Source: a virus. Taken from it: a stretch of 64,000 bases of DNA. The notes under the pieces are model-generated. The model worked only from the letters and a program-made list of their open reading frames with translations. It made no database searches and was not told the DNA's origin. The stretch lies in IMG/VR virus record IMGVR_UViG_2889178456_000001; one strand, given 5' to 3'. Below, piece by piece: positions 7,510-52,112 of the stretch. The first letter of the stretch is position 1; every line of letters starts with the position of its first letter. The translations under genes and the position numbers were made by a program.

Positions 7510-7787
7510 TTTGGAAATCATATTTTCTTGCGTATCGGAGGCTACTTTTGCCTCAAGCAGTCCATTCATAAGGATCCAAAAAATGTCTGAAGACAACATG
7601 CAAAGCTACAAAGTCGTCGTTCGCGAGACGCGTGTGGTTGAAGTCGAATACACCATCGAAGCTGGTAGCGAAGCAGAAGCAGAAGCTATGGATCTGGCGG
7701 GGGCCGGTGAGACCATTAGAGAGCAGGATATTCGTACCATGAACTACTCCACCCTAACCTGACGGTTCAGGATGGAGTTTCCGGGAC

Positions 7788-9023
7788 TTACGCCCCGTGG
7801 TCGGTTCCCAACCAAGAAACAGGTTTACCCTGCTGCTCTAAGCCCCATCTAAGCATGGTTGCAGCAGCAGCGTGATCTCTTGAGATTACGCTGCCATCTG
7901 GCAGCTCATGCGACCGATCTTGAAGCCTCTTCTTCACAGTGGCGCCCGAAACAGGGCAGCGTTGTGAGGGCTTCAAGGATCGAGTGGGCGCTATAATTAA
8001 CTCACAACCAGCTTCTTCCGCTTTGTATGTGAGGGCTTTCAAAAATGCAGATGGTGATGTGTCGAGAATTTCTCGATTCAAACCAGATTTTTGCGCGACG
8101 TTCCTGCCTGGAGCTTCTTCAGTCCCTTTGGCAGAACGAGTCATATTCGAGACAGTCAGACTTTCTGTCACGATCATCTTGTTATGCTTGACCAATTGCG
8201 ATGTCAGCTGATGAATATGGTTCTTTCGACGATTGGCGAGCTTCCTGTGGCGCTTCGCTAAGACACGCTTATGACGTTGGGCTCGCTTGGATCTTTTACC
8301 TCTTAAAGCCTTCGAAAGGTCGCGTTGAGCGTCTTTCAGATCTTCACTGGACTGCTGCCACAGCCGCTCATTCTTAACCTCTTGAGCCTCGCTACTTTCA
8401 ACACCCCAAGCCAGTGTTGCATATGTCTCAACGCCCCAGTCCAGACCTAAGGCAGGACGAGCATCTGGAGCAATTTCTCGATGTGTTTCACACTCCAGAA
8501 CCACAGACGCCCACCAGCCGTCAGATTTTCTCGTAATCGAGCAGACTTTCGGTCGGCCAGGAGTTCGTGCCTCACCCCTGATCTTGATTGTTCCGACACC
8601 AGATAGGCGCAGTCTACCATGGCGAAAACCCTCACCAGGCTTCAAGGTCCATCCATCGCCGTGACTTTTATAGCCCCATCCGCTAAACCTATCCTTAGAT
8701 TTGAAGCGCGGAAAGCCTGCCTTGCCGCTACCCTTTTTAACCCTGCGAAAGAAATGCTGATATGCTTCATCAACCCGCTTCAGTGTAACTTGCAAGGATT
8801 GAGCATTGATCGACCGATACTCAGGATCATCAGCTCTAATTTGAGTGACAGATTTTTCCTGATCTCCTTTGCGAATGGAAATTTCATGCTTTTTGTAAGC
8901 GTCCATTCGTTCTTGCAGAGCAGCATTATATAGCGCCCTGTGATTATCGTGCAGGCGTTCCAACTGCACGATTTGGGCGCTTGTTGGATACAGCTTGTAT
9001 GTGACGCGTCTTTGGTCCATCAT
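7788..9023 (-). CDS. tnpB: TnpB RNA-guided nuclease
   Basis: RRVTYKLYPT N-terminus, GFPRFKS, RuvC GLDWG / VTESL / SRDHAAA; start set by alignment with copy 2. Confidence 0.93.
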   Translation of the reverse strand: MMDQRRVTYKLYPTSAQIVQLERLHDNHRALYNAALQERMDAYKKHEISIRKGDQEKSVTQIRADDPEYRSINAQSLQVTLKRVDEAYQHFFRRVKKGSGKAGFPRFKSKDRFSGWGYKSHGDGWTLKPGEGFRHGRLRLSGVGTIKIRGEARTPGRPKVCSITRKSDGWWASVVLECETHREIAPDARPALGLDWGVETYATLAWGVESSEAQEVKNERLWQQSSEDLKDAQRDLSKALRGKRSKRAQRHKRVLAKRHRKLANRRKNHIHQLTSQLVKHNKMIVTESLTVSNMTRSAKGTEEAPGRNVAQKSGLNREILDTSPSAFLKALTYKAEEAGCELIIAPTRSLKPSQRCPVSGATVKKRLQDRSHELPDGSVISRDHAAAATMLRWGLEQQGKPVSWLGTDHGA

Positions 9024-9030
9024 CTTAGTT

Positions 9031-9447
9031 ATGTCACCAGAATCCAAATTTTACAAGCTAAATCATAGTATTTACGCACTACACTATCATTTAGTTCTCA
9101 CGACAAAATACCGTCGCAAGGTGATTAACGGACCTATTTTGGCTCGCATCGAACAATTGGTGAGGAGAAGAGCAGAAGATTGGGGTGGCGAGCTTTTGGA
9201 GATGAATGGCGAAGCTGATCATGTGCATTTGCTTTTATCTTTACCACCAACCATGGATTTGACGAAGTTCATCAACAACGTGAAGACCACGTCTTCACGT
9301 GTCATTCGAAATGAATTTTCTGATCATGTGAGTAAGTTTTACTGGAAGTCTGTTTTTTGGTCTCGCACATATTGCCTTGTGAGTTGCGGCGGTGCGCCGC
9401 TTTCCATCATCAAGCAGTATATCAAGAGACAAGATCGGCCAGATTAA
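9031..9447 (+). CDS. tnpA: IS200-type HUH (Y1) transposase
   Basis: HYHLVLTTKYRR, ADHVHLL (HUH), FWSRTY, IKQYI catalytic Tyr. Confidence 0.95.
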   Translation: MSPESKFYKLNHSIYALHYHLVLTTKYRRKVINGPILARIEQLVRRRAEDWGGELLEMNGEADHVHLLLSLPPTMDLTKFINNVKTTSSRVIRNEFSDHVSKFYWKSVFWSRTYCLVSCGGAPLSIIKQYIKRQDRPD

Positions 9448-9671
9448 TCGTTACATAATCCGCCTTCACCACCACCCTGAGGCTGCGCCTCTAGGATGGT
9501 GCACTAGCGTCGGGTCGGTAGATTTTTTATCTGCGGTCATATTCATCACTCCTGTGCACTATGAGTGATGTGGGAGTCATGGTTTAAATTACCGTTTTCC
9601 ATTCATCCAAAATTAGCCACCTTTAATCAAATGGCTGAGCCTCTATAGGCCGTTCCGGATTAGTACTCCGT

Positions 9672-15999: not shown

Positions 16000-17691
16000 A
16001 TGGCTCGCGCACCTAAAATTACCGGCTCCCCATTACAGTTGAAGTTACCCGCGTCGACCCTCTGGATCGTCGGTATATTCAGTCTTGCAGTGAACATGCT
16101 CCTGCTGGCCGGTCCCATCTATATGCTTCAGGTCTACGACAGAGTGCTTGGAAGCCGCTCAGAGGCCACCTTGGTGGCTCTCACGGCTATTTTGGTTGCC
16201 CTCTATGGGTTCATGGCATCATTCGACTACATTCGCGGCCGTCTGCTAGCTCGCATGAGCGCACAGATGCAACAAAAGCTAGATCCAGCGATCTTTCGAT
16301 CTGATCTTTTGGATTCCATCGGAGACCGAACGGGCCCCAAAGACATCGAGATGGTCCAGAAGATGCTTTCCTCTCCGGTGTTCGTGGCTTTCTTCGATCT
16401 TCCTTGGACACCCGTATTTCTGGCTGGCATCGCAATCTTCCATCCGGCGCTGGGCGTGCTTGCCCTAGTAGGTGGTGCCATCATTGTCGCGCTCTCTGTT
16501 CTGAACCAAGCCTCCTCACAAAGCGCAGCAATGGCTCAGATGACCGCATCTTCTAAAGCAAATATGATTGCCATGCAGTCGATCAGATCCTCAGAAGACA
16601 TTCAGGCGCTGGGCATGCGCGGTAGTGTGGCGGCTCGCTGGACGAAGTTCCGTGAAGAAGCCTTGGCCGAAAATATGAAATCAGGTGATCGTCAAGGAGG
16701 ATTCCTGTCAACAACCAAAGCTCTCCGGCTGTTCTTGCAATCTGCCATGCTTGGTTTGGGCGCCTATCTGGTACTCTTGGGAGAGCTGACACCCGGTGCC
16801 ATGATTGCTGGCTCCATTCTTCTTGGCCGTGCTCTCCAGCCTGTAGAGCAAATTATGGGTCAGTGGCAAAACGTACAGCAAGCACGCACGGCTTGGACCA
16901 ACATCAAGTCAAAGCTCAGCGCCCTGCCTGTCGAGACCCCAAAGACTGACATTTCGAAGCCCACTGGGCAACTTAAGGTGGCGAGCATGACCATTGTGCC
17001 ACCTGGCAATGTCAAAGCCACCTTGGCGATGATAGATTTCGAGATCCCTGCTGGCACTGCGCTGGGCGTCATCGGCACATCAGGATCAGGGAAATCAACT
17101 CTGGCTCGTGCAATCACAGGCGTTTGGAAACCTGCTGGAGGCCGCATTAGTATGGATGGATGGCCCATTAATCACTTTGATGGCGACGTCCTCGGCCGCC
17201 ATATCGGGTACCTATCACAACAGGTGGTTCTTTTTGACGGTACGATTGCTCAGAATATCGCACGCATGGAGGAAGACCCGGATCCTGAAGCTGTTTTGGA
17301 AGCCGCCAGGAAGGCAGGCGCCACGGATCTCATCCAGTCCCTGCCGCAAGGGTTCGACACCCCTATTACAAGCACATCTACAGCGCTTTCTGGCGGCCAG
17401 ATGCAAAGGATTGCGCTTGCCCGGGCCCTTTATGGAAACCCGTCCATACTGGTTCTGGATGAACCCAACTCCAATTTAGATCAGGCCGGTATCGTTGCTC
17501 TAAACAAGGCAGTCGCCGAAACCAAGAAGGCAGGAGGCTCCATCATAATTATGGCTCACCGACCTTCGGCAATTGAGGAGTGCGACCTTCTTCTAGTGCT
17601 CGACAAGGGGCGTAAGACCGCCTTTGGGCCTCGAGATGAGGTACTCAAGAGCGTGCTGAAATCAGCACCACGGACACAGGGATCTGCGTGA
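16000..17691 (+). CDS. prtD: Type I secretion ABC transporter (PrtD family)
   Basis: MLQVYDRVL, Walker A GTSGSGKST, LSGGQ signature, LVLDEP. Confidence 0.92.
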   Translation: MARAPKITGSPLQLKLPASTLWIVGIFSLAVNMLLLAGPIYMLQVYDRVLGSRSEATLVALTAILVALYGFMASFDYIRGRLLARMSAQMQQKLDPAIFRSDLLDSIGDRTGPKDIEMVQKMLSSPVFVAFFDLPWTPVFLAGIAIFHPALGVLALVGGAIIVALSVLNQASSQSAAMAQMTASSKANMIAMQSIRSSEDIQALGMRGSVAARWTKFREEALAENMKSGDRQGGFLSTTKALRLFLQSAMLGLGAYLVLLGELTPGAMIAGSILLGRALQPVEQIMGQWQNVQQARTAWTNIKSKLSALPVETPKTDISKPTGQLKVASMTIVPPGNVKATLAMIDFEIPAGTALGVIGTSGSGKSTLARAITGVWKPAGGRISMDGWPINHFDGDVLGRHIGYLSQQVVLFDGTIAQNIARMEEDPDPEAVLEAARKAGATDLIQSLPQGFDTPITSTSTALSGGQMQRIALARALYGNPSILVLDEPNSNLDQAGIVALNKAVAETKKAGGSIIIMAHRPSAIEECDLLLVLDKGRKTAFGPRDEVLKSVLKSAPRTQGSA

Positions 17692-18980
17692 TGCAAAAAT
17701 ATGGACAACGAAAACTCATTCTTACCGGAGTCTTCCTGCTTGCCGCTTTGGTCGCCGTTATGGGCGGATGGGCTGGTACGGCACAGATCAGTGGCGCAAT
17801 CATCGCTCCCGGCAGAGTTCAGGTCGACGACAATCGGGTAATCGTACAGCACCTAGATGGGGGAGTGATCGAAACTCTTCATGTGGATGAAGGTGACCTC
17901 GTGGAACAAGGCCAGCTGCTGCTGACCCTCGACCCGGCCGAACTGCGCTCCCAGTACAATATTATTGAAAGCAAGCTGAACGAAATCACAGCACGCCGTG
18001 CCAGGCTTGAGGCCGAACGCGATAATATGAATACGCTTTCCTTTGATCCCATGTTGGAGCTGAAGGCCGACCGACAAGAGGTTAAAGAGCTGATGGATGG
18101 CCAGCAAAGGCTTTTTGAAGCCCGTAATGTATCTCTGAAAACCGAACGCGAGCAACTCGGTCGCCGTCAAAAACAGATCGAGGAGCAGATCATTGGCATT
18201 GAGGCCCAACAGGATGCGATGAGTGAGCAGCTGGAACTGCTTAAAGGTGAATTGGACAACCAACAGACACTGTTGGATCGGGGGCTCGCTCAATCATCAA
18301 GGGTGACTTCCCTTAGAAGGGAGCAATCTCGTCTGCGTGGATCTCTCGGGGAGCTACAAGCTTCGAAGGCGCAAGCTAGTGGCCGTATCATCGAACTGGG
18401 TATCGAAATTGAGAAGCTTGATACATCCCGGCGCGAGAGGGCTGTCACCGAACTTAGAGATCAGCAATACAGAGAGCTTGAACTGCTGGAGCAAGAGCGG
18501 GTTCTGCGGATGCAGCTGGGTCGCCAGCATGTAACAGCACCCGTAAATGGGGTGGTCTATAATATGGCGCCGGTGAACCCTGGTGCGGTTCTGCGACCTG
18601 CGGACCCCCTGCTCTACTTGGTTCCCCAAAACCGTCCGATGGTGGTTGCAGCCGAGATCGAGGCCAAGGACATCCACCGTATCGCCTTCAATCAGGAAGT
18701 CCTGGTGCGGTTTTCATCCTTGGATCAGAAGAATGCCCCAGAAGTCACCGGGAGCGTCATAAAAATATCTGCGGATGCTTTCCAGGTGGAGAACCGGGCA
18801 CCATTCTACAAAGTAGAGATTGAGCTATCTCCTGAGCAACTGGCTGAAGCCATCAAGAACGTGGATCTGATCCCGGGCATGCCTGTTGAGGCCTTCATTC
18901 AGACGGGGGCGAGGACACCACTCGCGTACCTCACAGAGCCTTTGACGGATTACTTCATGGCTGCCTTCCGAGAAGGGTAA
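17688..18980 (+). CDS. prtE: Type I secretion membrane fusion protein (HlyD/PrtE family)
   Basis: VQHLDGGVI, coiled coil, VTAPVNGVV, LIPGMPVEAFI; overlaps the prtD stop. Confidence 0.92.
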   Translation: MMQKYGQRKLILTGVFLLAALVAVMGGWAGTAQISGAIIAPGRVQVDDNRVIVQHLDGGVIETLHVDEGDLVEQGQLLLTLDPAELRSQYNIIESKLNEITARRARLEAERDNMNTLSFDPMLELKADRQEVKELMDGQQRLFEARNVSLKTEREQLGRRQKQIEEQIIGIEAQQDAMSEQLELLKGELDNQQTLLDRGLAQSSRVTSLRREQSRLRGSLGELQASKAQASGRIIELGIEIEKLDTSRRERAVTELRDQQYRELELLEQERVLRMQLGRQHVTAPVNGVVYNMAPVNPGAVLRPADPLLYLVPQNRPMVVAAEIEAKDIHRIAFNQEVLVRFSSLDQKNAPEVTGSVIKISADAFQVENRAPFYKVEIELSPEQLAEAIKNVDLIPGMPVEAFIQTGARTPLAYLTEPLTDYFMAAFREG

Positions 18981-19263: not shown

Positions 19264-19533
19264 TATCAACTTCTACTGAAGTTCGTTGACATTTTTGGAC
19301 GATGTTGTAGATATCATTCTATCTTTCAAACCATATCCTTACTAGGGAGCCCCGGTCATCTTGATCGGGGCTTCTGGTTTTAAGCGGCAGCGACCTGGAT
19401 TAGGGTTTCTTCTAAGTGATGCTTCACAGCACTCCGAATGTCGTCCTCACTATCAGGGTCGAGCGGGTTCTTCTTATGCGCATTATGAACTACTCCACCC
19501 TAACCTGACGGTTCAGGATGGAGTTTCCGGGAC

Positions 19534-20769
19534 TTACGCCCCGTGGTCGGTTCCCAACCAAGAAACAGGCATACCCTGCTGCTCTAAACCCCATCTAAGC
19601 ATAGTTGCAGCCGCAGCGTGATCTCTTGAGATTACGCTGCCATCTGGCAGCTCATGCGACCGATCCTGAAGCCTCTTCTTCACAGTGGCGCCCGAAACTG
19701 GGCAGCGTTGTGAAGGCTTCAAGGATCGCGTGGGCGCGATAATTAACTCACAACCAGCTTCTTCCGCTTTGTATGTGAGTGCTTTCAAAAACGCAGATGG
19801 CGATGTATCGAGAATTTCTCTGTTCAAGCCAGCCTTCTGCGCGACGTTCTTACCAGGTGCTTCTTCTGTGCCTTTGACAGAACGAGTCATATTCGAGACA
19901 GTCAGTTCTTCTGTCACGATCATCTTGTTTTCTCTCACCAGCTTATTGCTCAGCTGATGGATGTGGTTTTTTCGACGATTTGCCAGCTGTCTGTGGCGCT
20001 TCGCCAAGATGCGCTTGTGGCGCAACGCTCGCTTAGATCTTTTACCTCTCAAAGCCTTTGAGAGGTGTCGCTGAGCGTCTTTCAGATCGTCACTCGCCTG
20101 CTGCCACAGTCGCTCGTTCTTAAATTCTTGGGCATCGCTGCTGTCGACACCCCAAGCCAATGTAGCGTATGTCTCAACGCCCCAGTCCAGACCTGCGGCA
20201 GGACGAGCATCTGGAGCTACTTCACGATGCGCCTCACATTCCAGAACCACTGACGCCCACCAGCCGTCAGATTTCCTCGTAATCGAGCAGACTTTCGGTC
20301 GGCCAGGCGTTCGCGCCTCGCCTCTAATCTTGATTGTTCCGACACCGGATAAGCGCAGTCTGCCATGGCGGAAACCTTCGCCGGGCTTCAAGGTCCATCC
20401 ATCGCCGTGGCTTTTATATCCCCAACCGCTAAATCTATCCTTTGATTTGAAGCGTGGAAATCCTGCCTTGCCACTAACCTTTTTAACCCTGCGAAAGAAA
20501 TACTGATATGCGTCATCAACTCGCTTCAGCGTCACTTGCAAGGATTGAGCATTGATCGACCGATACTCAGTATCATCCGCTCTAATCTGAGTGACAGATT
20601 TTTCCTGATCTCCTTTACGAATGGAAATTTTATGCTTTTTGTAAGCGTCCATTCGTTCTTGCAGGGCAGCATTATATAGCGCCCTGTGATTATCGTGAAG
20701 GCGTTCTAGTTGCACGATTTGGGCGCTTGTTGGATACAGCTTGTATGTGACGCGTCTTTTGTCCATCAT
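19534..20769 (-). CDS. tnpB: TnpB RNA-guided nuclease
   Basis: Close homologue of copy 1; RuvC D/E/D intact (GLDWG, VTEEL, RDHAAA). Confidence 0.93.
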   Translation of the reverse strand: MMDKRRVTYKLYPTSAQIVQLERLHDNHRALYNAALQERMDAYKKHKISIRKGDQEKSVTQIRADDTEYRSINAQSLQVTLKRVDDAYQYFFRRVKKVSGKAGFPRFKSKDRFSGWGYKSHGDGWTLKPGEGFRHGRLRLSGVGTIKIRGEARTPGRPKVCSITRKSDGWWASVVLECEAHREVAPDARPAAGLDWGVETYATLAWGVDSSDAQEFKNERLWQQASDDLKDAQRHLSKALRGKRSKRALRHKRILAKRHRQLANRRKNHIHQLSNKLVRENKMIVTEELTVSNMTRSVKGTEEAPGKNVAQKAGLNREILDTSPSAFLKALTYKAEEAGCELIIAPTRSLKPSQRCPVSGATVKKRLQDRSHELPDGSVISRDHAAAATMLRWGLEQQGMPVSWLGTDHGA

Positions 20770-20776
20770 CTTAATT

Positions 20777-21193
20777 ATGCCATTAGAACCGAAATTTTAC
20801 AAGCTAAATCATAGTATTTACGCATCGCACTATCATTTAGTTCTTACGGCGAAGTACCGTCGTAAAGTGATTAACGGACCTATTTTGGCTCGCATCGAGC
20901 AACTGGTGAGGAAAAGATCAGAAGATTGGGGTGGCGAGCTTTTGGAGATGAATGGCGAAGCTGATCATGTGCACTTTCTTTCATCGCTACCACCAACCAT
21001 GGATTTGACGAAGTTCATCAACAACGTGAAGACCACGTATTCACGTGTCATTCGGAATGAGTTTTCTGATCATGTGAGTAAGTTTTACTGGAAGTCTGTT
21101 TTTTGGTCTCGCACATATTGCCTTGTGAGTTGCGGCGGTGCGCCGTTTTCCATCATCAAGCAGTATATCGAGAATCAGGATCAGCCAGATTAA
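20777..21193 (+). CDS. tnpA: IS200-type HUH transposase
   Basis: HVH and IKQYI retained; several substitutions relative to copy 1. Confidence 0.92.
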   Translation: MPLEPKFYKLNHSIYASHYHLVLTAKYRRKVINGPILARIEQLVRKRSEDWGGELLEMNGEADHVHFLSSLPPTMDLTKFINNVKTTYSRVIRNEFSDHVSKFYWKSVFWSRTYCLVSCGGAPFSIIKQYIENQDQPD

Positions 21194-21846
21194 TCGTTAC
21201 ATAATCCGCCTTCACCACCACCCTGAGGCTGCGCCTCTAGGATGGAGCACTAGCGGCGGGTCGGTAGATGGCCCTCAGAGAGATGCTCTGATGAATATGG
21301 TCACACTCGTTGAGTTTCAGATATTCGGCCTTCGACATCACATAGAGAGGCTTTCCGTCACCAAGATTGGACACGTTGAGAACGATGATATTTCCGTCGA
21401 TGTCTCTTTCGATCCAAGCGTGGTCAACAACCCCACCCCCGTCGGATTCCGGAATAACAAACCTGCCGGTTACAAGATGAGTGGTATTCAGCAATCGGCG
21501 CTGGTCCTTTGTCCGTAAACCCTCAGAGTATTTAATAATGGAAGCACTCGCGCACATGGTTGAGTGAAAGCAATTACCACCTCCTCCGATACCCTTCCAG
21601 GAGGAAAGAAGTCCGGGGTCAGCGAAACTCGTGAACCAACGCAAGAGTTCTGCGCCGTTATCTCCAGCGTAGTTTTCCACGGTGATTTTTCGCATAAAGT
21701 TACCTCAAAACAGACACTTAGTGAGTTTACCATCGTTTTTATGATAGTGCAAGGTTGGGTGTAAGGACCTGCTTTGCACCCGCTCTAAAGCCTTTGCCAC
21801 TTTCAAAGTAAGGTCAACTTTACCATCAATCATAAGGAAAAAGTTC

Positions 21847-44046: not shown

Positions 44047-45027
44047 ATGAAGCAATTACCCGAAGGCACAATGGACGGCGTCGATGAACAGATTTTCGCG
44101 ATTGGAGACATTCACGGCGAGCTGGCCTCAATGGAAGCAGCACTGGAGTATGTTCGCGAGAACCGAGACCCCTCCCGGACGTCTCACCTGATATTTTTGG
44201 GGGACCTTGTGGATCGCGGTGCAGATGGCATGAAATGCATGAAGATGGCCTGGGACGCCTGTGAGCGCACCGGTGTCGACAAGCGTACTGTCCTGATCGG
44301 CAATCATGAGATGATGATGTTCCACTCGATCACTCCGCTTGCAGATGGAAGTTATGACGATTTCATGGGGATGAACTGGGTCAAGAATGGCGGCGCCTCC
44401 GTTATACGAGAGGTGACGGAAGCCTCAGGCAGCACCAAAGGTATCGAACAGCAGGTTAGGGATGCGATCCCCGAAGGCATGCTCGAGCACATGGTAGCAA
44501 ACACCCATCATCGCGCTGGTAACCTGATTTTTGTCCATGCTGGCTTAATCGCGGGCCTGGACAGTGAAGATGACCTTGCGCGTTATCTCGCCCGCCCACC
44601 AAAGATGGAGGACGGCGATAAAACACATTGGGCATGGGTTCGGGAGGACTACTTCTTGGAGTATGGTCGGGTAACTGGTTGGGGCCCTGATCGAAATCTT
44701 ATCGTTGTGCATGGTCACACACCGGTCGGCACGGATCCTCAGTCCTCCGCATACACTTCCTATGTCAAAGCACACAGAAGCGGCCAAGTTTTTGAGAAGA
44801 GCGAGACCGAAATGGCACGAGCACTTCTGGAAGCACTTAATAGCTCAGATCACCATGACCTGGTTAACGAGTGTGGTCGCATAAATATGGATGGCGGATG
44901 CGGGAAGTATAAGAAGCATGCGGCGCCTGTGCCCGTGCTCCAGCTTAAGGACAACCAATATCACATTGAGATGACGCTCAGGAATGACCTGGAAAGCAAA
45001 CCTCAAGCTGCGCCTTCACCATCCTGA
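44047..45027 (+). CDS. Metallophosphoesterase (PPP / lambda-phosphatase-like)
   Basis: IGDIHG, LGDLVDRG, GNHE, FVHAG, VHGHTP motifs. Confidence 0.9.
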   Translation: MKQLPEGTMDGVDEQIFAIGDIHGELASMEAALEYVRENRDPSRTSHLIFLGDLVDRGADGMKCMKMAWDACERTGVDKRTVLIGNHEMMMFHSITPLADGSYDDFMGMNWVKNGGASVIREVTEASGSTKGIEQQVRDAIPEGMLEHMVANTHHRAGNLIFVHAGLIAGLDSEDDLARYLARPPKMEDGDKTHWAWVREDYFLEYGRVTGWGPDRNLIVVHGHTPVGTDPQSSAYTSYVKAHRSGQVFEKSETEMARALLEALNSSDHHDLVNECGRINMDGGCGKYKKHAAPVPVLQLKDNQYHIEMTLRNDLESKPQAAPSPS

Positions 45028-45336
45028 TGGGTATCCTAAGTGCCATCAGCAAAACACTCCGCTCTAATCTGCAAAAATATGACGACCACCATAGGGACAG
45101 GCTTAGGCATCAGATCGAGGAAGCGGATATCGAGAGAGGCAAAGGCGTGATGGCCAGCCTTTCTCGAGGTAGTGTCCTTGTTTCACAGGAGAAGGTTTTC
45201 CTTGGTCGGATGCTGAGATAGAATTCCATACCATGAATAGTTGACAGGATATCTTACACCGTATAATGATTAGACATACTTAAATTATTAAGCTCGCTAT
45301 GGGCTTACTGATTACCGCTTGATGGAGAATGAATAG

Positions 45337-45573
45337 ATGTTTGCGACGATTTGGCTTGCTGGAGTAGCTGTAGGCGCCTTCCATATGAATGATAGCGGCA
45401 TCTGTGATGACATGATCGCAATGATGCGCGCTGATACCGACACGGCTTACGCGGAAAGCGGTCAGTTTGGATTGGCGACTGATACAGGCGCGATTTACCG
45501 TGCTGGCGACTGGTCCTACACATGTGAGGAAAACGGCGTGGAAGTGGGCGCGCTGATGGAAGCCTCCAGCTAA
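45337..45573 (+). CDS. Small hypothetical protein
   Basis: 78 aa, coupled to the next gene. Confidence 0.45.
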   Translation: MFATIWLAGVAVGAFHMNDSGICDDMIAMMRADTDTAYAESGQFGLATDTGAIYRAGDWSYTCEENGVEVGALMEASS

Positions 45574-45845
45574 TGAGTGATGACCGTCCTGCATATGTCT
45601 ATATGCTGGCGACCTGTGATAAGGGACGCAGCAAATCGTATGTGGGGTGGACCTACGATCCGGAAGCGCGTCTGAAGGCACACAACACCGGCCGTGGAGC
45701 GAAATCCACGAAGGGTCGGGACTGGCGAATAATACACCTGGAAACCCATCCGGGTAAGTCGGAGGCAATGTCCGCCGAATGGTATCTGAAAAAAGATAAA
45801 TATCGCCGCCAGAAATTGATCGCGGCAGCACGCAAGAAAGCATAA
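45573..45845 (+). CDS. GIY-YIG nuclease family protein (YhbQ-like)
   Basis: YVYML, SYVGWT, RLKAHNTGRGAKST, AMSAEW. Confidence 0.85.
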   Translation: MSDDRPAYVYMLATCDKGRSKSYVGWTYDPEARLKAHNTGRGAKSTKGRDWRIIHLETHPGKSEAMSAEWYLKKDKYRRQKLIAAARKKA

Positions 45846-45847
45846 AT

Positions 45848-46264
45848 ATGAAAAAGCTCATTCAAAGCGAACGCGCCCACTCCATCCCTCCGTATTACCG
45901 CGCCACGACCTTCACGGTGAAGGTGAACCTCGACATGGTTCCTGGTGCCATGCACACAGTTGAGGATGCTGCAAAAGCAATCTTGAACACCTGCAACTAC
46001 CTTCTCGCGGCAGTGGTCGACACCGCAGTAAAGCCAGGCTCCAAAGGCGTTGAGATTCAAATTTTGGGTGCGATGGACAGTGTTCGTGGAACCTGTCACC
46101 AGCCCGAGGATCACGTCAGCTTTATTAATGCCGGTGGCTACCAGCACTACATCAAGGATGTAACCTTCGATCCTGAATTCGCGCACGCCTATGTTATGCG
46201 CGGACGCTTCAATGAGATGGCCGACCAGGGCGATCTTTTCAGTACAGATGAGATCACTGGATAA
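45848..46264 (+). CDS. Hypothetical protein
   Basis: 138 aa, operonic spacing. Confidence 0.6.
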   Translation: MKKLIQSERAHSIPPYYRATTFTVKVNLDMVPGAMHTVEDAAKAILNTCNYLLAAVVDTAVKPGSKGVEIQILGAMDSVRGTCHQPEDHVSFINAGGYQHYIKDVTFDPEFAHAYVMRGRFNEMADQGDLFSTDEITG

Positions 46265-46267
46265 GAT

Positions 46268-46597
46268 ATGTCCGCTCAGCTGCTAGACTTCTCCCAAAAA
46301 GCCCGTGCGGTCCACCTTAAGCGCCATGAATATGACGTTCGCATTGATCGTCGGACGCGCTGGGGCAACCCAGAGCCTATGGCGAACCAGTCGGATAGAG
46401 AGCGGGATCGAGTAATTGCAGTCTACCGTGATTACCTCTGGGATCAGATCAAAAAGGGGAAAGTCACCCTAGAAGACCTTGCCGCCCTTCATGGGAAGCG
46501 GCTGGGTTGCCACTGCGCGCCTAAAGCATGTCATGGCGACGTCCTCGCGAATGCTGCTCAGTGGGCCTATGCCAAACTTTATCTGGGAGCTGCCTAA
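46268..46597 (+). CDS. DUF4326-family protein
   Basis: RIDRRTRWGNP, LHGKRLGCHCAPKACHGDVL. Confidence 0.85.
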   Translation: MSAQLLDFSQKARAVHLKRHEYDVRIDRRTRWGNPEPMANQSDRERDRVIAVYRDYLWDQIKKGKVTLEDLAALHGKRLGCHCAPKACHGDVLANAAQWAYAKLYLGAA

Positions 46598-47009
46598 TGA
46601 GACGGATTTACTTAGACTGTGATGGAGTTCTGGCTGATTTTGATCGGGCCTTCCGGGAGAAGTTTAACTGCTGTCCGGTCGACTACCGTAAGAGCGTCGG
46701 CACCGATAATTTCTGGGAAGATATTGTAGATCTGGCGCCTGATTTTTATCGCAATCTTCCGCTTATGCCTGATGCCATGGAGCTTTATATGGCAGTTAGT
46801 CACCGGCGACCGATCATTCTCACGGGATGCCCTACGGGTGGCTGGTCTGAGCTACAGAAGATCCTGTGGGGACGAGATCGTTTCCCCGGCGTACCAATGA
46901 TTGTATGTGCTTCCAAAGATAAGGGCATGTATTGCCAGCCTGGCGATGTACTGATCGACGACCGCACAAAATATGCGTACCTGTGGCGCGATGAAGGGGG
47001 CGTATTTAT

Positions 47010-48189
47010 CAGTTGCGCCGCAAGACCCCTTCCTTCAGGTGGGGGTTGTAAGGCGCGTTTCCATAGAAATAAATCTTGAATCCGGTGAATTGTCATGTAT
47101 ATTTGCATGTAATATGACAAAGACCAAGACTCTTAAGGTTCGAATTAAGGATCGCCACGCCGCACGTCTGCGGGACATGGCGAGGTCCGTAAACATGGTC
47201 TGGAACTACATCAACGAGCTTTCTGAGAGATCCATCAGAGAGCGTGGCAAGTTTCTCTCGGCTTTCGATTTACATCCATACACCAAAGGTGCGGCCAAAG
47301 AACTAGGGTTGCATTCGCAAACACCACAGCAGGTGGCCGCTGAGTATGTACGACGCAGAAAGCAATTCAAGAAGCGGCGTCTTTCATGGCGCAAAAGCTT
47401 CGGATCGAGGCGAAATCTCGGTTGGATTCCGATCAATACCAAAGCATCGTCGTGGAAGAAGGGATGCGTTTACCATAACGGAAGGTACTACCAGGTTTGG
47501 GACAGCTATGGATTGAAGCAATATACCTTCCGATCTGCATCGTTCAGTGAGGACGCGCGGGGGCGTTGGTACTTCAACGTTGTTGTTGAGTTTGAGGCTG
47601 AACAGAGCAAAGGCACCAGATCGGTCGGAGTAGATTTGGGGTGTAAGGATGCCGTAAATACCAGCGATGGTGAGAAACTCACCGGCCGATGGTATCGAGA
47701 AGAAGAAAAGAAACTGGCCGTTGCACAACGTGCCAAAAAGAGAAGGCGTGTCGCAGCTATTCACGCAAAAGCTGTCAACCGCCGAAAGGATGCGCTTCAC
47801 AAGCTGTCGCGCAAATTGGTCGATACAAATGCCGCAATCATCGTTGGCAACGTATCGTCACTTAAAATGGCTAAGACCCGTATGGCCAAGTCGGCGCTTG
47901 ACGCTGGTTGGGGCATGTTCAAAACAATGCTGGAATATAAATGCGATCACGCAGGTGTTGTTTTCGAAGAGGTCAACGAAGCCTATACTTCCCAACGTTG
48001 CTCGAGCTGCAAGGATATTCCCATCAGCAGTCCGAAAGGTATGGGCAATCTTGGAATAAGGGAATGGACATGCAGCTCTTGTGGATCGGTTCATGACCGA
48101 GACACAAACGCAGCGCTAAACATTCTCGCGCTCGGGCATGAGCGTCTCGCAGGAGGAATCCCCGTCCTTTAGGGCGGGGTGGATGTCAA
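47010..48189 (+). mobile_element. tnpB-only IS200/IS605-family element (IS1341-like), 1180 bp
   Basis: Inserted 3' of TTTAT with no duplication; left hairpin ACCCCTTCC/GGTGGGGGT; right end GAATCCCCGTCCTTTAGGGCGGGGTGGATGTCAA. Confidence 0.92.
47114..48172 (+). CDS. tnpB: TnpB with rearranged RuvC-II site
   Basis: KTLKVRIKD, GVDLG, IIVGNV (Gly for Glu), VNEAYTS, two CxxC pairs, HDRDTNAALNI. Confidence 0.92.
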   Translation: MTKTKTLKVRIKDRHAARLRDMARSVNMVWNYINELSERSIRERGKFLSAFDLHPYTKGAAKELGLHSQTPQQVAAEYVRRRKQFKKRRLSWRKSFGSRRNLGWIPINTKASSWKKGCVYHNGRYYQVWDSYGLKQYTFRSASFSEDARGRWYFNVVVEFEAEQSKGTRSVGVDLGCKDAVNTSDGEKLTGRWYREEEKKLAVAQRAKKRRRVAAIHAKAVNRRKDALHKLSRKLVDTNAAIIVGNVSSLKMAKTRMAKSALDAGWGMFKTMLEYKCDHAGVVFEEVNEAYTSQRCSSCKDIPISSPKGMGNLGIREWTCSSCGSVHDRDTNAALNILALGHERLAGGIPVL

Positions 48190-48254
48190 CCACCATACTT
48201 GTGCCCAGCAATCCATCGAGCAATTGAAACAGATGAATATTATTTGAGGGTTTT

Positions 48255-48647
48255 ATGAAAGATACTGTAGATACACCTGTCGACCTTACTGAAGGCACTC
48301 TTCCTAAAGACGCTGATGCTCGCTTTGAGGAGCTGAACGGCTCCTGTGTGGTCATCCCCAAAGGGCACTACTGCTACACAGCGCTGGGCTTTAAACGCGA
48401 CGAGGCCGGTGGCCCTCCCCGCATGAGGATTAAAGCATGCCCCTATCACGCGGTTGATCCCGACCAGCCTGAGCAGCGCTCTGGTTATTGCGCCAAGCTG
48501 AAGGCTGGCGACTGGGAAGAAGAAGGGACCCGCCTGCTTTGGGACATGACCAAAGAATGTGATGTGAACTATCCTGACTGGGAAGAGGATGACGAGCTGG
48601 AAGCCGACCTACAAAAGCTCCGCACCGAAGTATCCGGAGAAACCTGA
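48255..48647 (+). CDS. Cys-rich hypothetical protein
   Basis: HYCY, ACPYH, YCAKL, KECDVN; GAGG RBS. Confidence 0.6.
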   Translation: MKDTVDTPVDLTEGTLPKDADARFEELNGSCVVIPKGHYCYTALGFKRDEAGGPPRMRIKACPYHAVDPDQPEQRSGYCAKLKAGDWEEEGTRLLWDMTKECDVNYPDWEEDDELEADLQKLRTEVSGET

Positions 48648-49345: not shown

Positions 49346-51943
49346 TTAGTAGACGAAATCGTGGATGTCGATGTTGTTGGAGTTCTGGCCAACAAGCACA
49401 CACATCAGGTAATCATCATCTGGGGTCGACTGGTTACCATTGTAGGTAATTTCGACATCACTGCCAGCTTGAGAGATGCTGAACGTTTGATCAGCAATGG
49501 GATCTCTTGCTGCGGAGCCAGAAAGAAGTCGAGACACGTCGATCTTGTCGGAACCATCCAGGAAGTCCATAATTTTGGCTACCGACTTATCCCAGTGATC
49601 CATGATGAACTGGTCGTTGCCTGAACCACCATAAAGGACATCTTCTCCACCGCCGCCGGAGATGTGGTCATCACCACCCTGCCCCCGGATGACATTGGCT
49701 GAACTGTTGCCCCAGATCTTGTTGTGGCTCTCGTTCATTGTCAGAGAAGATTCACCGGCACTCTCGAGCAATCTTGCATACTCGATGTTCTCACCAGACT
49801 GGAACGCACCAAGGGCATCATACATGACAAAGTCATTGCCTTCCCCGGCATTTTCTCTGGTCTCATCATCGACATGATCGACAACGTAAACATCATCACC
49901 GATGCCACCATACATGTGATCAGAGCCTTCGCCGCCATCGAGACGGTCGTTGCCAGCATTACCAAATAGGATATCCCGGCCCGATCCGCCATCCAGTGAG
50001 TCACGACCGAGACCACCGGTCAATACATCGTCGCCAGAATTGCCGTAGATCCGGTCATCGCCCTCTTGGCCGTGCATGATGTCTCGATGCGCACCGCCAG
50101 AGATGAGATCGTTGCCCTCACCACCTTTGATGTAATCGCGACCGTAGCCTCCCGAGAGGTAATCGTCACCTCTGCCGCCTTCGATATGATCGTTGCCGGT
50201 GCCACCCAGAACATGGTCATCCCCATCGAAGCCAAACACAGTGTCGTTGCCTTCATTGCTGGTGATTTGGTTGTCACCATTCGTCCCATAAAGGCGATCA
50301 TCACCACGCCCCGAGATGACGTTCTCGATACGGTTTCCGGTCACTCTGAACTGGGTACCCTCAAAGATGCTTGTGCCGCCAGCAAGAGACACTGTGACGC
50401 CCTCTGAGGTGGCTGTGAGGTTCAATGTGTCCTCACCCCCATCATGATCGCTGATGATGCCGTCAGAGGCCCCAGTTTCGATCATGCGGCCGATATCTGA
50501 GGTCACGAAGTGCATGTCGCCATTTGATATCGCATCACCATAGACAGTCAGTTCCACGTCCTTGACGGCAACGTTGGTAGGTTTATCCATCTTGGGGAGG
50601 TTGAACTCAAGGCGCCATGTACCAGCGCTTTCTTCGCCCCAGAAGGCATTTGATGTGAAGGTGAAATCAAGCTGCTTACGATTGTGGTCGATACCACTTA
50701 TCAAGGCGGATCGTGTACCTTCCGGGGATATGAGAGTTGCCTCGATGACCGAGAATGCCCAGCTCCCGTAGTTCATGTTCAGCGTAACCTTGTCGATGCT
50801 GATATTGTCTTCCATGACGATATTAATGCTATCCACCCGATCCTCGAAATCGATCAACTCCGGTTCCAGATCGGAAACGACCGTTGAGCCTGTGCCTTTC
50901 ATCATATTTTCTGAGGTAGACTGCTTATGCCAGTACGCTGCAAGGTTTGTAGCCGCTGTCACATCGAGAAGCCCGAAGCCATAATCGTTGCTAAAGACCA
51001 TGCCTCCACCATTCCAATTATCGGCGCCATTTTCACGCCAGACATTGCCTTCCGACGCAGCAGCATCGCCAGCCATTATGTCTCCTGTGGCATCAACCTT
51101 ACGAGAGCTGATCGCTAGGATTTCCTGTACATCGCGCCAGCCCAGGTCTGGGTTGGCTTCCAGCATTAGAGCTACAGCTCCTGATACCTGAGGGGCGGAG
51201 AACGAGGTGCCACGAACTGCTTCAGAGCCACCGTTGTCGCTTCCTCCATAAACATCTAGTCCGGGAGCTGATACTAGGAGATTGGACCCTTCCGAGCTGA
51301 AATAGGTATAAACACCATCCTGATCAGTGGCTCCAACGGTAATCGTACCAATGTCATTTTTAAGGTTACTGGTGTTGGACGCACCATCCTTGTTTCGTTC
51401 GTTACCGGCCGCGAAAACTACGTTCACACCCAGCCCATCACGACCTTCCGCCAGTGCCTTGTCTAGTTCGTCACCCCAGCGCGTTCCCCAGCCATGATCG
51501 TTGAAATTGTCGACGAAAGCTTTGCTCCAGCCCCAACTATTATTGAACACGTCCGACTGATGAAGACCGGCAATCCATGCTTCGTGCGTCCCCTTCCCTT
51601 CGCCAAAGGAAACACGGTTCGCGATCAGTCCAGCTTCATAGGCAACTCCAACGACACCCGTGCCGTTCGCTGCGCCCAGGGCAATTGTCGAAGTAGACGT
51701 ACCATGAGCTGTGTCAGAGCCATATTTTCTCACATCGCCATCGTTAAAGGCATAGTCCCAGGAGCTATCCAAGATATTGTCGGAAATATCTCTATTGCTC
51801 GTGTTAAAGCCATCGTCAAGAAAAGCAATACTCACGCCTTTACCTGAATAGTTTTCCCATGCTCCTTCTACATTGATGCCATTCTCACTATGGAGATGCC
51901 ACTGCTTACTGTAATGGGGATCGTTCTTTGGATTTCTTGGCAT
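49346..51943 (-). CDS. S8 subtilase with P domain and C-terminal RTX repeats (type I secretion substrate)
   Basis: Triad FLDDG / HGTS / GTSFSAP; P-domain WGEESAGTWRL; many GGxGxD nonapeptides; no Sec signal. Confidence 0.92.
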   Translation of the reverse strand: MPRNPKNDPHYSKQWHLHSENGINVEGAWENYSGKGVSIAFLDDGFNTSNRDISDNILDSSWDYAFNDGDVRKYGSDTAHGTSTSTIALGAANGTGVVGVAYEAGLIANRVSFGEGKGTHEAWIAGLHQSDVFNNSWGWSKAFVDNFNDHGWGTRWGDELDKALAEGRDGLGVNVVFAAGNERNKDGASNTSNLKNDIGTITVGATDQDGVYTYFSSEGSNLLVSAPGLDVYGGSDNGGSEAVRGTSFSAPQVSGAVALMLEANPDLGWRDVQEILAISSRKVDATGDIMAGDAAASEGNVWRENGADNWNGGGMVFSNDYGFGLLDVTAATNLAAYWHKQSTSENMMKGTGSTVVSDLEPELIDFEDRVDSINIVMEDNISIDKVTLNMNYGSWAFSVIEATLISPEGTRSALISGIDHNRKQLDFTFTSNAFWGEESAGTWRLEFNLPKMDKPTNVAVKDVELTVYGDAISNGDMHFVTSDIGRMIETGASDGIISDHDGGEDTLNLTATSEGVTVSLAGGTSIFEGTQFRVTGNRIENVISGRGDDRLYGTNGDNQITSNEGNDTVFGFDGDDHVLGGTGNDHIEGGRGDDYLSGGYGRDYIKGGEGNDLISGGAHRDIMHGQEGDDRIYGNSGDDVLTGGLGRDSLDGGSGRDILFGNAGNDRLDGGEGSDHMYGGIGDDVYVVDHVDDETRENAGEGNDFVMYDALGAFQSGENIEYARLLESAGESSLTMNESHNKIWGNSSANVIRGQGGDDHISGGGGEDVLYGGSGNDQFIMDHWDKSVAKIMDFLDGSDKIDVSRLLSGSAARDPIADQTFSISQAGSDVEITYNGNQSTPDDDYLMCVLVGQNSNNIDIHDFVY

Positions 51944-52112
51944 GTGCGCCCTTTCTCTGGTTATAGCCAAAAAGGTAGCACATACTCATTTATGAAATAG
52001 TTACGGCTCGGGAATAACGAATGGGGTGGAGAAGACAAAAAGGTCCCCGATCAATTAAGTTCGGGGGCCTTTTTGTGAGTTAATCTCAAATAATATTAAG
52101 CGAGACTTATTA

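Follow-up and report, generated by a model that had tools for sequence, protein, structure and literature searches.

A gene for a 352-aa TnpB lies between hairpin-bearing ends inside an NT5C/HAD gene in the window, by which we mean the whole 64-kb stretch of DNA that was analysed (part of an 819-kb contig). The segment from 47010 to 48189 is very probably a 1,180-bp non-autonomous IS200/IS605 insertion within that gene, carrying an Ealt-type TnpB, a predicted omegaRNA, and left-end (LE) and right-end (RE) hairpins. The features of the locus are as follows:

46597-47009, + strand: 5' part of the NT5C/HAD 5'(3')-deoxyribonucleotidase-like gene, 137 codons plus 2 nt (Pfam NT5C)
47005-47009, + strand: target site/TAM, TTTAT (core TTAT), directly before the LE; the related locus L002 has TTTAT followed by C
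47010-47075, + strand: LE, with a subterminal imperfect hairpin at 47015-47056; kept in the related loci L001 and L002
47076-47103, + strand: promoter-like site upstream of tnpB (TTGAAT, 16-nt spacer, TATATT); consensus scan, weak
47114-48172, + strand: tnpB, 352 aa, Ealt type, with D174, G245, E289 and D330 and a zinc finger of C296/C299/C320/C323 (translation, Pfam, alignments)
47954-48189, + strand: predicted omegaRNA scaffold, overlapping the 3' end of tnpB (RNAalifold and pair counts)
48160-48189, + strand: RE, with a subterminal hairpin at 48160-48179 and then the cleavage site ...GGATGTCAA; terminus common to related loci
48190-48209, + strand: putative native guide, the first 16-20 nt of flank, immediately 3' of the RE
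48190-48247, + strand: 3' part of the NT5C/HAD gene, the last 19 codons and the stop; fits the C-termini of homologues

The insertion and its ends

When 46597-47009 and 48190-48247 are joined, they encode a 156-aa NT5C protein. It can be aligned over its full length with homologues of 153-160 aa, of which there are more than 2,200, and is 78% identical to P0123. Across the junction the restored frame reads ...GGVFI-HHTCAQQSIEQLKQMNII, followed by the stop, and its C-terminus, ...GGVFIHHTCAQQSIEQLKQMNII, pairs with ...GGVFVHHTSAQKSLEILAEMKII of P0123 in the alignment. As present in the window, the split frame runs on into 23 unrelated residues from the LE and stops at 47079. Since the native protein loses only its last 19 residues, a truncated nucleotidase might still be made. 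The 160-aa protein P0122 of a public collection corresponds to this truncated product (46597-47079). The separated last 19 codons of the host gene have kept an open frame and still resemble the homologues, which argues for a fairly recent insertion.

The nucleotidase gene lies within a same-strand run of small, phage-flavoured genes (window 44047-48647), comprising a metallophosphoesterase, a GIY-YIG nuclease, an unknown gene, a DUF4326 gene, NT5C and another unknown gene. The opposite strand encodes, at 49346-51970, a subtilase of 874 aa that has a P-domain and RTX repeats, and an HlyD-type secretion protein is encoded at 17688-18980.

The element is placed at 47010-48189 because the limits of homology on both sides agree with the restored host gene. 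Comparison with relatives puts the first letters of the element, CAG..., at 47010, immediately 3' of TTTAT (47005-47009). At the other end, the alignment of the window with two metagenomic loci, L001 and L002 (TnpB 92% and 87% identical, respectively), runs through ...GGATGTCAA at 48189 and zero bases beyond. Of 82 related loci, 78 finish in the GGATGTCAA terminus and have unrelated DNA after it; two of these 78 carry one mismatch and read GCCAA. There is no target duplication at the insertion, and removal of the element restores the host gene exactly, with TTTAT followed by C. One C is common to both junctions, giving a one-base ambiguity in the ends; this is settled because the base after TCAA varies, whereas the base after TTAT is always conserved LE.

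A fixed LE sequence motif missed the LE in most relatives, and copies within the same genome were compared instead, for four multi-copy genomes. The outer flank of the LE is (T/A)TTAC followed by CAG in one Pseudomonadales genome and NTTAT followed by CA in Denitrificimonas, Azomonas and Lampropedia. These junctions give TTAT as the conserved target core, replaced by TTAC in one lineage; at the fifth base there is no more than a bias towards T.

Subterminal hairpins at both ends are a defining feature of the IS200/IS605 family, and here both are present and conserved with compensatory changes. The outer stem of the LE shows such a change, GCGCC/GGCGC against CGACC/GGTCG (the swap in L001). Folded as single-strand DNA, the LE hairpin has an energy of -12.4 kcal/mol (z = -2.6); the RE hairpin also folds, and the loop and stem of the two are similar (CCCCnTCCTTyAGGnnGGGG). 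The promoter-like site upstream of tnpB matches the consensus at 9/12 positions, a weak call because such matches are no more numerous than in shuffled sequence.

The original prediction was that the TAM is 5'-TTTAT, that the right end is TCAA with the native guide directly after it, that restoring the split HAD gene fixes the ends, and that the element has no cognate tnpA. These expectations hold. TTTAT is right for this copy and lies directly before the LE, although for the family as a whole the core is TTAT or TTAC. Homology to related loci ends at TCAA, at 48189, the 20-mer given as the guide is 48190-48209, and the joined nucleotidase frame aligns to the last residue of its homologues. 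No tnpA was found in 47010-48189, where just 69 nt separate the LE hairpin from the tnpB ATG. It is because the Y1 (HUH) TnpA is absent that this copy is described as non-autonomous.

The TnpB protein and its active site

The protein contains the domains OrfB_IS605 (PF01385, 42 bits) and Cas12f1-like_TNB (PF07282, 90 bits), both over the Pfam cut-offs. The public gene call, P0002, starts at Met28 (47195) and has 325 aa; 47114 is the better start because relatives are conserved from residue 1 onwards, through residues 1-27. In the translation, RuvC-I (VGVDLGCKD) contains D174, and RuvC-II (AAIIVGNVSS) contains G245. The segment VNEAYTSQRCSSC holds E289, C296 and C299, and CSSCGSVHDRDTNAA holds C320, C323 and D330. 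When aligned by phmmer to ISDra2 TnpB (8EXA/8H1J), the protein has G245 opposite the catalytic Glu of '..GTEHL..' and E289 opposite the Pro of 'VSPYFPSSQ'; G245 also aligns to the Glu of '..AVEDL..' in the 9YYG sequence. G245 is followed by E289 at a distance of 44 residues, and E289 precedes the first CxxC by six (E289-AYTSQR-C296). The set of three acidic RuvC residues is thus complete by way of the alternative position, E289, and is accompanied by a CxxC...CxxC zinc finger. The individual residues in the original prediction, a Gly at the usual Glu of RuvC-II, a Glu at the usual Pro in VNEAYTS, and DLG rather than DPG at RuvC-I in a protein of 352 aa, can all be read in the translation and these alignments.

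A non-acidic residue at the canonical position combined with a Glu some 45 residues downstream, six before the zinc finger, is known from Fanzors and some bacterial TnpBs (PMC10530073, PMC10711439, PMC10691335). In published structural models this alternative Glu is at the active site (PMC10691335, PMC10711439), and the equivalent Glu of the mimivirus protein ApmFanzor is essential, the E467A mutant being dead (PMC10530073). The AlphaFold model of the present protein has a mean pLDDT of 68, falling below 50 at residues 289-295. In this model G245 ends the strand 239-246 and E289, in a loop of low pLDDT, follows the strand 283-288. This placement agrees with the published beta-4 to beta-5 shift, although the E289 loop is poorly predicted. 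Because of the pLDDT below 50, the proximity of E289 to D174 and D330 is taken from the published models of relatives.

All of 26 relatives, at 66-92% identity, have D174, G245, E289, D330 and the four zinc-finger Cys unchanged, and L175 of the RuvC-I DLG is likewise invariant in the 26 aligned members. The dN/dS of tnpB against L001 and L002 is 0.06.

Loss of the canonical RuvC-II Glu (Gly245) and the lack of a tnpA in the element are compatible with a nuclease-dead or domesticated TnpB of the TldR kind, capable only of RNA-guided DNA binding. However, the compensating E289 is present and invariant together with D174, D330 and the zinc finger. The transposon ends, which are lost in TldRs, are intact, as is the target motif, and the relatives are multi-copy and mobile. 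The tnpB gene is also part of an insertion that interrupts a host gene, and not a neighbour of a regulated host operon, and activity has been shown for Ealt enzymes (PMC10530073). A dead protein is therefore a very improbable reading, and by analogy with its characterised relatives we infer that the TnpB is an active nuclease, with the glutamate six residues before the zinc finger likely to take over from the lost canonical Glu of RuvC-II.

The predicted guide RNA and the proposed working of the element

The predicted omegaRNA was derived from an alignment of the last 260 nt before the RE in 42 non-redundant relatives, for which RNAalifold predicts ten helices. Those near the RE are 48128-34/48139-45, 48146-48/48153-55 and 48160-66/48172-79; further helices are 48060-66/48121-27 and a long-range pairing, 47954-58/48183-87. 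Standard pairing is found in 97.8% of cells, against 31-50% when the partners are slid, and cells in which both partners have changed number 101, against 22 in shuffles, with 0/500 shuffles as high. Most of the compensatory changes fall in the three helices nearest the RE, two of which are within coding sequence. The long-range pairing is held in nearly all sequences. Because its variation is one-sided, the 5' limit of the RNA that it implies, at about 47954, is a provisional one.

The helices inside the reading frame have a visible effect on the protein. At 48128-48155 (codons ..ALGHERLAGG..) two omegaRNA helices lie in the tnpB frame, and across relatives L/V/A codons covary with E/D/G/R/C codons, as in GCGCTC..GAGCGT, GCGGTC..GACCGT and GCGGCA..TGCCGT. 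The codons change in pairs because the helices sit in the frame, so that here RNA structure appears to dictate protein variation.

No curated omegaRNA family matches the locus in Rfam. A match to HgcC at 48084-48202 scores 23 bits (E 0.017), below the gathering score of 50, and takes in the last omegaRNA hairpin as well as the ...GGAUGUCAA end. This hints that HgcC, which is an archaeal RNA family, could itself be a right-end RNA of TnpB.

If the element works as ISDra2 and TvTnpB do, TnpB would be loaded with a transcript that finishes with the RE scaffold and about 16-20 nt of flank, and 48190-48209 would act as the guide, with a probable length of 16-20 nt. The complex would then cut copies of the nucleotidase gene that carry TTTAT and a match to the guide, that is, the empty or excised site, and recombinational repair from an occupied copy would restore the element. 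No other occurrence of the guide 16-mer, and hence no second target, was found in the 64-kb window. A move to new sites would need a Y1 TnpA in trans, of the kind that the nearest relatives encode: L001 and L002 each have a divergent Y1_Tnp gene (PF01797) between the LE and tnpB.

The window contains a different IS605-type element in two 91%-identical copies, at 7739-9523 and 19485-21269. Each copy has a Y1 tnpA of 150 aa on the + strand and a divergent TnpB of 411-419 aa on the - strand; in this TnpB the Glu is at its canonical place (..MIVTESLTV..), an HTH_OrfB domain is present, and there is no CxxC zinc finger. Mobilisation in trans by the two tnpA genes of the window (at about 9.0-9.4 kb and 20.7-21.2 kb) is unlikely, as their products are 44% identical to the cognate type and the element ends and hairpins differ.

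It is possible, though we consider it somewhat unlikely, that the insertion is stranded: with no compatible TnpA in the genome it would be immobile, and TnpB and omegaRNA would at most guard the occupied site. The element has no tnpA and is present in a single copy in the 64-kb window, with no solo ends found there. The window's tnpA genes come from an IS605-type element that is unrelated and has other hairpins at its ends, and the silent-site divergence from the nearest known relative is substantial (dS about 0.86). Against this, most copies in this family are without tnpA, many multi-copy relatives among them, and yet they reach many copies per genome, the window is only part of an 819-kb contig and of the genome, and the preserved tail of the host gene points to a recent insertion.

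Relatives, class and known systems

The published classification accommodates this protein readily. Jiang et al. (2023) named the bacterial proteins with this arrangement TnpB2 (PMC10530073), and Altae-Tran et al. (2023) described branches with a rearranged RuvC-II, the Glu-to-Gly branch being the largest and some of the branches being virus-borne (PMC10691335). Yoon et al. (2023) used the name Ealt for a Glu that precedes the zinc finger by six residues, and distinguished two clades of Ealt proteins, D-Phi-G and DPG, with Fanzors and the cyanobacterial, IS607-linked pro-Fanzors in the DPG clade only (PMC10711439). Judged from its sequence, the TnpB described here is a member of the known D-Phi-G Ealt clade (alias TnpB2, RIIr), an assignment made because of its DLG motif, its relatives with Y1 TnpA and its proteobacterial setting.

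These relatives are numerous. Among clusters formed at the 50%-identity level, 15,389 match the protein at E <= 1e-3 and 353 at E <= 1e-30, and 389 related stretches were found in contigs representing one genome per species. Related genome loci are proteobacterial in 80 of 80 cases (including Henriciella, Endozoicomonas, Pseudomonas, Shewanella and Lampropedia), spanning Alpha-, Gamma- and Betaproteobacteria but not cyanobacteria. Plasmid copies, annotated as RNA-guided endonuclease TnpB, occur in Pseudomonas, Shewanella, Klebsiella and others, and phage copies in Bacillus, Ralstonia, Salmonella and Acinetobacter phages. Gly together with the alternative Glu is found in 76 of the 79 full-length cluster representatives among the best 150 (36-54% identity).

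The original prediction took the Gly and relocated Glu as a mark of Fanzors and their bacterial relatives and called the active site 'Fanzor-type'. The literature agrees with the first statement, but the mark is not a rare one, given its presence in those 76 of 79 nearby representatives. As for the second, the relocated Glu is real, but the link is overstated in view of DLG, the association with Y1 TnpA in place of IS607, and the proteobacterial relatives. A stronger form of that link would make the protein a pro-Fanzor, one of a narrow bacterial lineage ancestral to the eukaryotic Fanzors and with a special bearing on their origin. The Ealt Glu six residues before the zinc finger is indeed common to this TnpB and Fanzors (PMC10711439), and 15 of the 79 related representatives among the best 150 join DPG with Ealt. 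However, RuvC-I is DLG and invariantly so in the 26 aligned members, not DPG; the nearest relatives have a Y1 TnpA and not an IS607 serine recombinase; and the relatives are Alpha-, Gamma- and Betaproteobacteria, not cyanobacteria. In sequence and fold searches the solved Fanzor2 comes below the TnpBs of ISFba1 and ISDra2 and below Cas12f, the best fold matches being ISFba1 TnpB, ISDra2 TnpB and Cas12f, with Fanzor2 at rank 11. A pro-Fanzor identity is thus extremely unlikely, and the D-Phi-G Ealt assignment is retained.

The full-length representatives among the best 150 that combine DPG with the relocated Glu (15 of 79) are:

P0246, P0271, P0282, P0283, P0292, P0302, P0304, P0307
P0335, P0352, P0356, P0369, P0371, P0382, P0386

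In a quick unrooted tree these 15 lie dispersed, and its well-supported branches require a minimum of 8 changes. The scatter in this quick tree would sit oddly with a single narrow clade combining DPG with Ealt, the 'Fanzor fingerprint'. For P0246 and P0283 the contigs, at about 1.3 kb, are too short to give the transposase context. It is conceivable, although we regard it as doubtful, that the Y1-TnpA-linked Ealt lineage, which is also found on plasmids and phages, is not cleanly apart from the 'Fanzor fingerprint'. If it were not, DPG with Ealt would extend beyond the cyanobacterial IS607 pro-Fanzors, and Fanzors could have arisen from a wider set of ancestors than has been proposed.

The locus itself is an ordinary, well-preserved example of a large published class. 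Its value is that an Ealt-type TnpB element can be read from it in full, down to the exact ends, the target motif, the guide, and an omegaRNA backed by covariation. At 352 aa, the TnpB is a compact candidate for probing the effect of the relocated Glu on cleavage and collateral activity, and it is conceivable, though doubtful, that it is a small nuclease lacking collateral activity. Because the literature already covers the rearranged active site, where it occurs and that it is active, the locus opens no new question, and its importance goes little beyond annotation.

The closest characterised system in kind is that of the Ealt/TnpB2/RIIr proteins, exemplified by TvTnpB of Thermoplasma volcanium. 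These share the Gly for Glu, the alternative Glu and D-Phi-G, and likewise the association with IS200/IS605 Y1 TnpA and the RE-derived omegaRNA. TvTnpB, an Ealt protein, shows TAM-dependent cleavage without collateral activity (PMC10530073). Its target is NTGAC, against TTAT/TTTAT here, and the range of the present family is bacterial (proteobacteria, plasmids, phages). Of the sequence matches with a solved structure, ISDra2 TnpB (8EXA, 8H1J, 8BF8) is the best characterised (E 2e-25), and it is among the top fold matches too. It differs in having the canonical Glu278 in place of Gly245 and a Pro in place of E289, in its length of 408 aa as opposed to 352 aa, and in its TAM, TTGAT. The Fanzor2 protein ApmFz2 (9B0L) has its relocated E467 at the same position relative to the zinc finger as E289. 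However, Fanzors and pro-Fanzors have DPG, an IS607 serine recombinase or eukaryotic transposases, and N-terminal extensions, whereas the TnpB described here has DLG, belongs to a Y1 TnpA lineage and is without the extension, and its match to 9B0L is weaker (E 6e-10). In layout, the insertion resembles the IS1341-type or tnpA-less derivatives of IS200/IS605, with tnpB only between LE and RE hairpins. These likewise insert 3' of a short target without duplication and need TnpA in trans. L001 and L002 represent the autonomous form with a divergent tnpA, and the copy in the nucleotidase gene shows no notable difference from the IS1341 type.
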